DNA of 64,000 bases from Octopus vulgaris (Eukaryota), in contig OX597828.1 in the NCBI GenBank assembly GCA_951406725.2, positions 16,306,001 to 16,370,000 on the forward strand, given 5' to 3'. Every line of letters begins with the position of its first letter. Position 1 is the first letter of the stretch. Of this stretch, positions 1,670-40,112 are shown one piece after another. A model generated the notes under the pieces. The model did no database searches. It was given only the letters and a program-made list of their open reading frames with translations, and was not told the DNA's origin. Both the position numbers and the translations under genes were made by a program.

Positions 1670-1704
1670 TTTCTGTTGAAGAGCGTAGGCTCGAAATGTA
1701 AAAG
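1670..1704 (+). ncRNA. Degenerate minimal hammerhead-like motif in a PLE-type pLTR relic
   Basis: ttt CTGTTGA a GAGC gtag GCTC GAAAT GTA aaag follows the minimal PLE hammerhead layout (CUGANGA-A-stemII-GAAAC-GUH) with core substitutions; second copy at 14903-14940. Confidence 0.45.
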
Positions 1705-2169
1705 ACTCTCTCACTTTCCCAAGAGTCAAGCTACTACACCTGCTTGTTGTTCATAGACCTGTCTTCGTCGTTTGATTTTTGGTAAATTTCAACTATATAT
1801 ATATATTTAAAATGAGATAGGGGTTGTAAATTCAACCCTCCATGGGATAACATATATATATATATATATATATATATATATATATATATATGTATATATA
1901 CAAAGTATGGGGGTTAACTTCACATGTGGTCTAAACGATTAGGTACGCTAGGTACCTAATATATATATATGTATATATATATATATTCTCCATTTTGGGG
2001 GATGGAATACGCTTCAATCATTTTACAGTTTCTAATTATTTAAGAGAGCACGTATATATATATATATATATATATATATATATATATATATATATATATA
2101 TATATGCATGCTTGTATTTATGTATGTGTTTTCAACGCATACCGTTTCATTTTTATTCTACTTTTCTTG

Positions 2170-2385
2170 GAGGCGTCGAGCTGGCAGAATCGTTATCACC
2201 CTGGGCAAAATGCTTAGCGGCATTTCGTCTGTCTTCACGTTCTGAGTTCAAATTCCGCCGAAGTCGACTTTGCCTTTCATCCTTTCGGGATCGATAAATT
2301 AAGTACCAGTTGTCTACTGGGGTCGATCTAATCGACTGCCCGTCCCCCAAATTTAAGGCTTTGTGCCTAGAGTAGAGGATTATTC
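2170..2385 (+). mobile_element. tRNA-derived SINE family B (Meta-domain type)
   Basis: ggcgtcgagctggcagaatcgtta...gagttcaaattcc (B box)...gcctttcatcctttcgggatcgataaattaagtaccag; many copies in window. Confidence 0.85.
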
Positions 2386-2880
2386 TTATTTCTTTCTTAC
2401 TTAATTTTGAAAGAGGGTTCACCCGAGACGTTAGTCTACTTCTCCTTTTCTTTTTTTCCTGTCTGTCGGCGCACTTTTGAATACTGACAACATTTTATAT
2501 TTGTATTCTTGCATTTAAAAAAATATTTGTCTACCCGTTCTAAACTCGAACGTTGTCCAACAGTGTATCTCTTATTCCGCCCGGTCCAGTTTGGGCTAGT
2601 TAACTTATACATACAGCGGTGGTGCCCCAGCATGGCCGCGGCCTTCGGGCTAAAACATTTTAAGGATTTTAAGGATTTATACATACATACATACATACAT
2701 ATATATATATATGTATACATATATATATATGTACATACATATATGTACATATATATATACATATATATGTCTATATATATATATATATTTATAATAGGAT
2801 TAGCTCGTATACGAGTAGGTATATATTTGTAAAAAATGAAGTTCGAAAATGCTGCTGTATTATACAATTTTTAATTTTTA

Positions 2881-2930
2881 TATATACATTATAACATGTT
2901 TCAGTTCCTGAAATGAACCTTATCAAAAAA
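2881..2930 (-). ncRNA. Candidate U3-A8 variant hammerhead ribozyme in the PLE pLTR
   Basis: Minus strand: TTGATAA GGTTC atttcag GAACT GAA ACAT gttata ATGT A; stems II and III well formed, stem I poor. Confidence 0.5.
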
Positions 2931-36500: not shown

Positions 36501-39480
36501 CTTCACTTAGACCATGTGTCAAATGTCGAGTAGCGATGCTGAGGCGAATTCCTGAGCTGCATGGCATATTAAGGTTCAACGTTCTCTCGCTCTGCTCTCT
36601 AAGTAGTATACCGATTCGAAAGTTGCTTCCAAACAACTGGATTATATGTAAATCTGCACATAGATTAACGTTAGAAAATAATATATAAAATGCTAATAAT
36701 AAAAGTATTACGCTTCTAAAGGAAGCCATATTATGGTGTAGTATTGTTGTTTTGCTTTCGTTTTGTTTTGTATTTGGTTTTTCTTAAGTTTGCTGACTCG
36801 AGCTTCTGTATATGTATATATGTGTATATGTATATATGTGTATATGTATGTATGTAATTATGTATGTATATGTGTATGTATGTATGTATGTATGTATGTA
36901 ATTATGTATATATGTATGTATGTATGTATGTATGTATGTATGTATGAATGTATGCTTGCATGTATGTCTGTGTGTGTAACTATCTCCTCTATTTCTCATT
37001 AACTGTGTATATCTGTGGTAGAGAATATATGTTTATCTATCTATCTATCTATCTATCTATCTATCTATCTATCTATCTATCATCTATCTATCTATCTTTC
37101 TATCTATTTATATATTTATCTATTTATCTATCTATCTATCTATCTATCTATCTATCTATCTATCTATCTATCTATCTATCTATCTATCTATCTATCTATC
37201 TATGTAGCTATCTATCTGTCTGTCTCTCCTTCTCTCTCCCTCTCTCTCCCTCAAAATCTGTATATTTATGTACTTATATTTGGCTTTCTTTATGAATATA
37301 TCTTTAATATATATATACATGTCAGTGCGTGTATGTATATATATATATATGTATATATATATATATATGTATGTACATGTATAGACATACACACATATAG
37401 AGACATATATTCGTATGTACATTTAATATAAATGTAAAAATGTAAAAGTATAAATGCTTGCGTGCCTCGACCTGCTAGAAATAACACCAACAGCAAAAAA
37501 AAAAAGAAAGAAAAAATGTAACACACTCAAACGGTTTCAGACCGCATTCTGATTGTTACTAGGGTTGCAGCCATTAGCTGCATGTTGATATCTTTGTTTA
37601 TATAAACGTGCGCATGTATACGCATGTGTGTGCAAACTTATAAACATACAAACACATACACATTCATGTACAATCGTGTCACCTCATACATGTTTACATA
37701 TCACCACACATAGACACACGCACACAAATGTAAGTATTTGAATGCTAACTATATACGATACAGTTGTTTGAAAACAAGAAGAAGCAATGCGAAAAGCAAC
37801 AACAGTCTTTTTTTTTTTTAATAGAAAATAAAATAGACTAAATGGGCTGACGATAGAAAGACATTTCTAATACATACAAGCGTCGACTGGTTAGAAAGTA
37901 GGAATGACACGTGCGACATACGTCATATCAGTCGGGTTCACGTATGCCACCGAGATTGATCAAGGTCAGACAAAGGCTCAACAACGCCAGATGGTCTGAT
38001 ATCTACCAGAGATATACAGAAACAGACGTACACCTAAAATTATAAACGCATATTCTCACATAATTACTTATGTATACGTACTTAAGATATACATATATGC
38101 AATTACACACACACACACACACGCGCGCACACGCACACGTATGTATCTATGTAAATATTAGATGTACGTACAAACATATATATGTATATGCTTTTGTATA
38201 TGTATATATATTGCTATAAATGTATATCTAGCTTCCTCTATATATATTATATAAATATATATATATATATATCTTCCTCCTCTCTCTCTCTCTGTTTATA
38301 TATATATATATATATATATATATATATATATATATATATATATATATATATATATACATATATATGTATATTTATGTATAAGTCTATATATATATATATA
38401 TATACATCTATATAATCTATATATATTTACACACACGTACGTAAGTATACATTCATATACACACAGAAGGGAATAAAGTAATGAAAGAAAGAAAGAAAGA
38501 AAGCTAGTTAGCTACATAGATAGGGAGAGAAAGAGAGAGACAGATAGATGGAGAGACACACAGACAGATATAAGGAGCGAACCAACGAACCCCTCAGTGT
38601 TGCTCGACCTACTTACAATAGGAACCGAAATCTAATCGCCTTCTACCATAGCTCACACAAATGCACACACGCATATAAAACGGACTTCTTTCAGTTTCCG
38701 GCTAACACCTCCACTCAAAAGGGTTTGATCGGCCGAGGACATTGTGGAAGACAGTTGTCCGAGATGCAACGCAGTGGGACTAAACCTGGAACCACGTGGT
38801 ATATATATATTGTCTCTTCTTTACAGAAAATGGCCAGCACTTCTGGCAGTAAATGCCGTCAGGAGATCTAATGCGACTCATAAACCAAACTTGCGACAAA
38901 GAGACCCTACGGCAGATTTTATGAACATTTTGAGACAGAAAAGTGTCTGGGGTTGACGTAAGTCCTGAATACGAAGTGCTCCTTTCAAGATAGGGAGCTT
39001 GATTCTCTGCGTTTCGAACTCTTTGCAACCAGAATAGGTCACTTCTATCCAAAACAGTCCATTTCCCACTCTTCAACATCCATACTGAAAACGTTAAGGA
39101 TACCTTTCATATATATACACACACACATATATATATATATATATATATATATATATATATATATATATATATATATATATATAAATCAAATTAGAGATAA
39201 AACCACTATTAGGCAAATCAAACAGTGAAAAACATAAACCAACACATAAAAATAAATATAATTAATATAATATACAAAATATATAAAATATAAAATTTTA
39301 AATTAACATTATTTAAATTTAAAATTTTTAATTTATATTTATCAATTTTTATATTTTTTAATATTTTTTAAATTTATAAATTTTTAAACTTTTAATTTTT
39401 TAATTTATCAATTTATTATTATTATTTTTTATAAATACATATATATATATATATATCGACGGATACAGAGATGGAAATGA

Positions 39481-39798
39481 TTTTATTCTTAAACACAGGA
39501 TGCTGCTAATAATATACCACAAACAGGATGATATATCCATATTTTGCAGAAAAATCTGTCGGTGGTCAGCCATGAAACTCGAACTCACATCCTTGTGATT
39601 ACGCGTTAAGTGCTTTACCGTTAAGCTAAACTGTCCCAGCGACAAATTCTTCTTCAAATTTAGGATATATACACGTAATCACAGAGTTGTGAGTTCGTGT
39701 CTCATGGCTTGCTGCCGACAGATTTTTCTGCAAAATATGGATAGTTTATCATGTTTCATGTTGTATTATTAGCATTATCCTGCGTTTGAGAATAAAAT
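39481..39798. repeat. Fold-back repeat containing a tRNA-like sequence
   Basis: Arms 39481-39605 / 39673-39798; minus-strand tRNA-like tagcttaacggtaaagcac...gagttcgagtttc at ~39565-39638. Confidence 0.7.
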
Positions 39799-40070
39799 AA
39801 TATCTTTATCTATCTTTCACTACATCTCAACGCTTCTAAAGCAAACTTTGCTTGTTGACTGTCAAAGGAAGTTGAATTTAACATATATATATATATGTAT
39901 ATATATATATATATATATATATATATATATATATATATATATATATATATATATATATATATATTTAAAAAAGGAGATGTGGAACACGAGTTGTGATATA
40001 TAAAAAAGGAAATGAAGAAAATGCTGACAAAATAATTTAAGTAATTTAAGTAATTTAATTAGGTGAAAGT

Positions 40071-40112
40071 TCTTTTTACCGGTTGCGCATTTGTTATGCT
40101 TATCAAAAGATG
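40071..40112 (-). ncRNA. Degenerate U3-A8 minimal hammerhead with palindromic stem III
   Basis: Minus: tctt TTGATAA GCAT aacaa ATGC GCA ACCGGT A aaaaga (GAAA mutated to GCAA). Confidence 0.5.

Follow-up and report, generated by a model that had tools for sequence, protein, structure and literature searches.

Background

Minimal hammerhead ribozymes (min-HHRs) have been found in massive numbers, mostly as single motifs, across metazoan genomes, including forms with a U3-A8 core (Cervera and De la Pena 2014, PMC4209133). In the accessible text of that work, those of Penelope-like elements (PLEs) are type I folds located in the pseudo-long terminal repeat (pLTR), with a tiny palindromic stem III, the U3-A8 variant and an extra base after A9, and they belong to many unrelated families per genome, mostly as single copies and some as inverted pairs. 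The nine hammerhead motifs analysed here, all of them within a stretch of 64,000 nucleotides of Octopus vulgaris DNA (contig OX597828.1, positions 16,306,001 to 16,370,000; hereafter the window), are alike in these respects. One of them lies in the tail of a 5'-truncated PLE, and it is quite probable that the other eight stem from PLEs too, either as 3' tails left behind by several families or as short derived repeats; most of them are predicted to be inactive, and they were likely inserted singly at TA microsatellites.

Two further systems are close to this locus. Among endonuclease-bearing (EN+) PLEs, a CX2-5CxxC linker is a feature of Neptune and Nematis, and a bias towards microsatellites is a feature of Neptune (Craig et al. 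2021, PMC8557442, as far as its text was accessible). Retrozymes that lack long terminal repeats (non-LTR retrozymes) resemble the motif-bearing segments of the window in that both are short repeats without coding sequence that bear type I hammerheads, with a link to PLEs and with dispersed monomers (accessible text of PMC7229834 and of the Li et al. 2026 preprint). For cephalopods, 235 loci matching Rfam hammerhead-1 are reported in the accessible text on the giant squid (PMC6962438), while the accessible supplement of PMC4209133 holds no cephalopod term (octopus, no matches) and the main text of the 2026 repeat annotation of Octopus vulgaris (PMC13282606) mentions neither ribozyme nor hammerhead.

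Nine hammerhead motifs in seven sequence groups

The window is animal DNA with a GC content of 36%. Motifs are named here by the position of core nucleotide 3, whereas the preliminary description of this DNA gave the start of stem I (plus strand) or the low end of the motif (minus strand). That description had claimed nine motifs from about seven families; all nine are present and they form seven sequence groups, but four of them score in the chance range when taken alone. Five are on the plus strand, with the cores CUGUUGA (1673, with U at position 6), CUGAUGA (7726 and 14256, the latter at 14256-14262), CUGAUAA (14774, with a C3-A8 mismatch) and CUGUGAA (14907), and four on the minus strand, with UUGAUAA (2926, U3-A8, and 40106, in which GCAA also replaces GAAA by an A13C change), CUGAUGA (5706) and CUGAAAA (31586). 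The hammerhead core C3(U3) U4 G5 A6 N7 G8(A8) A9 / G12 A13 A14 A15.1 / U16.1 H17 is unchanged in four of the nine (2926, 5706, 7726 and 14256) and altered in 1673, 14907, 14774, 31586 and 40106.

Repeat pairs were found by masked self-BLAST of the window, since plain repeat finding was dominated by microsatellites. Motifs 5706 and 7726 form an inverted pair that is 95-98% identical, 1673 and 14907 are 81-85% identical, and no other pair of motifs aligned. Judged by their sequences, two motifs are damaged copies of others, 5706 of 7726 and 14907 of 1673.

A truncated Penelope-like element carries motif 2926

The PLE insertion extends over 2820-5389. Its coding part (3787-5304, minus strand) is a 5'-truncated, C-terminal piece of an EN+ PLE open reading frame (ORF) with reverse transcriptase (RT), thumb, CX4CxxC linker and GIY-YIG domain, open to the stop codon; the open frame itself covers 3787-5334 (515 codons), the likeness to relatives beginning at nucleotide 5304. 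Pfam matches were obtained to GIY-YIG (E 1.3e-6) and to RVT_1 (E 5.9e-6, below its cut-off), and the frame holds the RT motifs GTAMG and YLDD, the thumb motif DIYYKPT and the linker CGRPNCGIC at residue 381. The two Cys of a CxxC at residue 421, together with His 447 and His 464, make up the CCHH motif of the GIY-YIG core. Relatives number 559 at E<=0.001, of which 79 of the best 120 carry the same Cys-linker/GIY-YIG pattern; the named ones among the matches listed are from bivalves (44-45% identity). Because the alignment starts only at residue ~258 of relatives of ~750 amino acids, with 56-60% identity, the copy is 5'-truncated.

Downstream of the ORF, the 3' non-coding part (pLTR; 2820-3786, minus strand) ends at a (TA)-rich repeat. 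Motif 2926 (2875-2945, minus strand; core 2926-2920), a type I minimal hammerhead with a score of 41 and predicted cleavage after 2893, is located in this tail, in the same orientation as the ORF and 861 nt beyond its stop codon. It has a 5-bp stem II closed by a G.U pair and a palindromic ACAUGU stem III, and it is the best candidate for dimer activity; its stem II resembles the Xenopus min-HHR row in the accessible supplement of PMC4209133. A 100% identical, inverted copy of the last 88 nt of the element (2820-2907) was found by self-BLAST at 5302-5389 on the plus strand. It adjoins the truncation point, contains a few TA bases and only the 3' half of the hammerhead, and is followed by (TA)n; TA-rich repeats flank the insertion at both ends. 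The exact inverted copy and the open frame suggest that the insertion would be young. The reading of the motifs as PLE tails in the preliminary description, which had missed the RT and GIY-YIG ORF adjoining motif 2926, is supported, directly in the case of this motif.

This layout matches the accessible description of Neptune and Nematis EN+ PLEs (PMC8557442), which share with it an RT followed by a C-terminal GIY-YIG domain, the linker, 5' truncation, an inverted tail copy and microsatellite targets, and from which the window copy differs in missing ~257 N-terminal residues and the upstream pLTR. With a CX2-5CxxC linker upstream of GIY-YIG, its sequence would place it within the feature set of Neptune or Nematis, a set that does not separate the two clades. 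The PLE stretch is present, at word shares of 0.68-0.85, in 20 of the 24 runs listed, from 11 studies, and there is no RNA run among those listed as carrying it, X7 being no more than a presumed RNA run. Within its non-coding part, region 3260-3620 of the minus strand shows repeated TGATGACGTC and GATTGG blocks, with a 58-bp tandem unit at 3260-3377. We take these blocks to resemble cAMP-response element (CRE) and CCAAT boxes, and they may be the promoter of the pLTR.

Excess over chance and predicted activity

A hammerhead descriptor of our own was run on the window and on its unmasked DNA shuffled by dinucleotide in 500-nt blocks (300 shuffles). Two stricter versions kept three motifs and one motif (14256 only), respectively; the counts reported come from a third, relaxed version, tuned after the motifs had been seen. 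Three motifs with an intact core score at least 25 (2926, 7726 and 14256; scores 28-41), with 0.02 expected and none of the 300 shuffles reaching three. When all motifs scoring at least 14 are counted there are eight, with 2.7 expected and as many in 4 of the 300 shuffles, and at thresholds of at least 16 and at least 18 the excess is not significant (36/300 and 38/300 shuffles). The preliminary description had proposed the comparison with dinucleotide-shuffled DNA; in it, the three intact-core motifs stand above the shuffles, but 1673, 14774, 31586 and 40106 overlap with them. Motifs 5706 and 14907 fail the descriptor scan, and are assigned as hammerheads by homology to 7726 and 1673.

An active hammerhead is expected to have no change in the core and no mispair beside it in stems I, II and III (accessible text of PMC3088659). 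Motif 14256 is free of such changes, and so is 2926 if the G.U at 10.1-11.1 is accepted, together with the known U3-A8 swap. The other seven motifs carry lesions in the core or adjacent to it, such as the U.U at 10.1-11.1 of 5706 and 7726. Strict criteria for activity thus single out one or two motifs only, and most of the nine are predicted to be inactive; the claim of self-cleaving RNAs is not supported for most of them.

Association with (TA)n repeats

For six of the nine motifs, (TA)>=5 lies downstream of the predicted cleavage site by no more than 130 nt, against a background of 8.9% (p 3e-5); this cut-off was chosen after the data had been seen, and at 100 nt the count is four of nine (p 0.002). 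Upstream, (TA)>=5 is found for one motif out of nine. The preference for microsatellites proposed earlier is therefore present, as a directional (TA)n bias. Simple or low-complexity repeats occupy 16,417 of the 64,000 nt, about a quarter of the window. A test of the distance to masked DNA was uninformative, since 57% of unmasked bases lie at most 150 nt from masked DNA.

The 1673/14907 family and its U6 core

The first copy of this family is a short repeat (1634-1793, plus strand) that contains a min-HHR-like motif at 1670-1703 with C15.2 changed to U, and whose 3' end is at (TA)n. The second (14870-14971, plus strand; motif 14903-14939) is more decayed and is interrupted at 14972 by a SINE-like (short interspersed element-like) repeat. 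Assembled contigs of four runs were aligned to 14470-15250 at 80% likeness; the resulting contig depth should not be read as a copy number. In all four runs, contigs accumulate over 14875-14982; in run X8 the depth is 13 at 14470-14496, 1.5e4-8.8e4 at 14767-14847, the region of motif 14774, and up to 2.2e6 at 14902-14955, and the order is the same in the other three runs. Motifs 14774 and 14907 belong to repeated families.

The majority letters of the 14907 family are G at 14912 (95-100% of the depth), C at 14931 (72-93%) and A at 14934 (53-74%), and they restore G8, C15.2, with it a palindromic ACGU stem III, and A17. This majority shows an extra base after A9, G10.1-C11.1 and the palindromic stem III, which are all the features given for PLE min-HHRs in the accessible text of PMC4209133. 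Position 6 (14910), on the contrary, is not restored, since the T>A sites that reach 15% number exactly two in every run, namely 14934 and 15014; the sister copy 1673 also has U6. We therefore consider U6 to be the majority state of the family and not the decay of one copy, bearing in mind that the 80% likeness used for alignment gives a slight advantage to contigs resembling the window copy and that an A6 subfamily below 15% would escape. An exact-pattern scan for the 1673 family in viral contigs gave no matches.

Changes of A6 lower the activity in Mg2+, and A6C, a rare natural phage variant, is slow in Mg2+ and rescued by Mn2+ (accessible text of PMC3088659 and PMC7151607). The octopus family is like that variant in showing a natural change at position 6 of an otherwise complete hammerhead, and unlike it in that the base is U and prevails in an animal repeat of very high abundance. 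In the literature searched we found no report of a natural A6U, which goes unmentioned in the accessible text of PMC7151607, nor was CUGUUGA found in the accessible supplement text of PMC4209133; variants at position 6 may already have been described by Lunse et al. 2017 in their work on the hammerhead variants of PLEs. We put forward tentatively, as possible rather than probable, that the 1673/14907 family, among the most abundant short repeats of the animal, is a non-autonomous PLE-tail element in which U6 has become fixed and the other min-HHR features have been kept. It would be either a natural ribozyme with A6U that has remained able to cleave, perhaps helped by protein or Mn2+, or a ribozyme that is dead but retains its fold as a handle for the PLE protein. 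Under the same tentative proposal, with at least seven families in 64 kb, the genome would perhaps be among the most hammerhead-dense known, with ~10^5 motifs missed by Rfam. The density of the window (three strong motifs in 64 kb), if typical, would exceed the 2,000-9,000 per genome given in the accessible text of PMC4209133.

The remaining motifs

Motif 14256 (14240-14347, plus strand; score 36, predicted cleavage after 14330) is the best-formed type I hammerhead of the window, with an 8-bp stem II that bears a long extension and (TA)n 48 nt downstream. Its fold is better than those of shuffled sequences (z -3.13, 0/200 shuffles), and self-BLAST found no second copy of it within the window. 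Motif 5706 (at 5662-5712) is located in a non-coding segment between simple repeats (5577-5960, minus strand), and has an intact core, a stem III broken beside the core and a stem II closed by U.U. A 120-nt inverted copy of part of this segment (7666-7785, plus strand) carries motif 7726 (at 7720-7770; score 28), with an intact core, a 6-bp stem I, a 4-bp stem III and a weak stem II, although its predicted fold pairs the core GAAA.

The hammerhead-like motif 14774 (14752-14842, plus strand; score 15) is found in a terminal inverted repeat of 19 bp with TA-rich ends, and may be either a tiny inverted-repeat element or a hammerhead whose stem I is very long; its fold differs strongly from shuffles (z -5.7) owing to the terminal hairpin and not to a hammerhead shape. 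A short segment at 31497-31640 of the minus strand contains the decayed motif 31586 (at 31549-31590; score 11), in which stem III is missing and stem II is a perfect 5-6 bp. The 3' part of the segment has a 53-nt inverted copy at 31859-31911, across (TTA)n/(TTG)n, and an exact-pattern scan for this family in genome contigs gave no matches. At 40397-40414, beside the end of a mariner element, 18 nt agree exactly with the 3' half of motif 31586 (E 0.001), possibly a tenth and nearly erased motif copy. Finally, motif 40106 (at 40071-40112; score 17) lies in a segment between (GA)n/(TA)n and (TA)n (39965-40160, minus strand), and combines its UUGAUAA core and A13C change with a palindromic ACCGGU, a short stem I, G10.1-C11.1 and (TA)n 113 nt downstream.

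Origin of the motifs

The layout of the element at 2820-5389 and the second inverted, tail-like copy that flanks motif 31586 favour PLE tails as the source of the motifs. From published PLE biology, the GIY-YIG endonuclease would nick AT-rich or (TA)n DNA, and the RT would then copy the RNA from near its 3' end by target-primed reverse transcription, usually stopping early. Such heavy 5' truncation would leave the last 100-400 nt, hammerhead included, and an inverted copy of the tail would sometimes be added at the truncation point. The hammerhead of the parent element would cleave weakly, as a dimer through its palindromic stem III or with the help of protein, and solo copies, deprived of a partner, would decay; short families such as 1673/14907 would probably be copied in trans as non-autonomous elements. 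In vitro, metazoan min-HHRs showed no activity as monomers and weak activity as dimers (accessible text of PMC4209133), and hammerhead catalytic mutants did not reduce the in vitro insertion of an anole PLE (PMC11167929); both observations fit solo, decaying motifs and the spread of the U6 family.

Several results weigh against this derivation. The PLE ORF is tied to one of the seven groups only, so that a PLE origin of the six groups that lack an ORF would be indirect, and a tblastn search with 40 PLE relatives brought up no further coding remnant of a PLE in the window. No well-formed hammerhead was seen at three related PLE loci, two of them long loci in which no more than 225 and 81 nt follow the match. 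Rfam hammerhead models are built on other stem lengths, and none of them matched at E<=10 in 14100-15100, 7664-7785 and 2826-3790, which cover five of the nine motifs; in a scan of the whole window, where (TA)n matches to microRNA models dominate, no hammerhead was among the best 150 of 459 matches. The folds of five of the nine motifs, among them 1673, 14907, 31586 and 40106, are no better than those of shuffles, and that of 2926 is marginal (z -1.62). Folding of two copies gave the dimer-hammerhead shape for 40106 only, and not for 2926 or 1673. Motif 14774, with its terminal inverted repeat and no (TA)>=5 within 130 nt, may move by another route than the other motifs.

The low scores of 1673 (14), 14774 (15), 40106 (17) and 31586 (11), each within the chance range alone, together with the folds of 1673, 14907, 31586 and 40106, raise the possibility that derivation from hammerheads is confined to the three motifs with an intact core and to their copies, 14774, 31586, 40106 and perhaps 1673/14907 being chance look-alikes in ordinary repeats. 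Hits of like score, absent from the set of nine, indeed occur at 8841, 28744, 50633, 52534 and 54816 on the plus strand (scores 10-15), as well as at 55606 and 39411 on the minus strand, and 2.7 motifs at >=14 are expected in shuffled DNA. We nevertheless regard chance as quite unlikely, given that the majority of the 1673/14907 family restores three core or stem positions, that 40106 joins G10.1-C11.1 and a palindromic stem III to its dimer fold and nearby (TA)n, and that 31586 retains a perfect stem II and an inverted copy of its tail. It is also rather unlikely that the solo motifs represent monomers of non-LTR retrozymes, with cleavage and circularisation taking place from tandem arrays at other genomic sites. 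Retrozyme monomers do spread along chromosomes and have been proposed to derive from pLTRs (accessible text of bioRxiv 10.64898/2026.07.22.740005), and 14256 and 7726, with their fuller stems, are nearer to classical type I hammerheads; but retrozymes are tandem units of ~300 bp (accessible text of PMC7229834), whereas no motif of the window is part of a head-to-tail unit and the copies that form pairs are either inverted or separated by 13 kb. The term retrozyme-like, used in the preliminary description, is thus not supported in the window, even though the line between retrozymes and solo pLTRs is to some extent a matter of naming.

A true local hotspot, or an intron in which the host keeps active ribozymes for RNA processing, seems to us very improbable. 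Seven of the nine motifs do fall within 13.2 kb (p 0.009, or 0.03 with 5706/7726 counted once), a span picked post hoc, and none lies beyond 40.2 kb. Against this stand the lesions in seven of the nine motifs and the use of both strands. Furthermore, the contig depth of the 14907 family, as a rough guide, is of the same order as that of the adjoining SINE-like family, which has 11 segments in the window (ten besides that neighbour), so the two copies of 1673/14907 are not an excess, and the depth points to abundance throughout the genome. A local hammerhead hotspot is accordingly doubtful. The seeding of introns claimed before is unsupported: no host exon was recognised, none of the 148 frames scanned (152 found) reaching a Pfam cut-off, a scan that small exons could escape. 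Derivation from PLE tails remains our preferred explanation.

Other elements of the window

Apart from the single PLE, the window contains several SINE-like families, a mariner transposase and a fragment of a long interspersed element (LINE); no tRNA gene was found in it. The mariner-type transposon (40456-41751) has a 39-bp terminal repeat pair and a 303-residue frame (40531-41442, minus strand) that matches Transposase_1 (E 4.5e-25). In the LINE fragment (43621-44910, minus strand), presumably RTE-like, a (TTC)41 expansion is read in frame as a long poly-Glu run, and the relatives, among the matches listed, are named RT zinc-binding proteins from marine invertebrates. A segment at 14510-14740 with terminal-repeat-like ends, repeated in other runs (depth 1e3-2e5 in X8), resembles, we assume, a Tigger/pogo miniature inverted-repeat transposable element. 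One SINE-like family forms head-to-tail runs of ~184-232-bp units at 21017-22228, 27571-28005 and 49042-49781, in which the descriptor scan found no hammerhead. Self-BLAST also detected unclassified two-copy interspersed repeats at 2-450/54683-55119, 50625-50726/51369-51467 and 17948-17998/57041-57091.

Conclusions

Publications already describe solo min-HHRs that come from many PLE families, as well as the U3-A8 core and the targeting of (TA)n (PMC4209133, PMC8557442). Of the poorly annotated population claimed for this DNA it stands that the families seem to be unannotated as ribozymes, but their kind has been published (accessible text of PMC4209133). The value of the present analysis lies in the annotation of families that escape Rfam, and in the testable lead offered by the U6 family and by a possibly very high genome-wide density. 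On the question of why PLEs keep hammerheads, to which the result with the anole PLE belongs (PMC11167929), a hugely amplified family with U6 as its majority state constitutes a natural test of whether cleavage is needed or the fold alone suffices.

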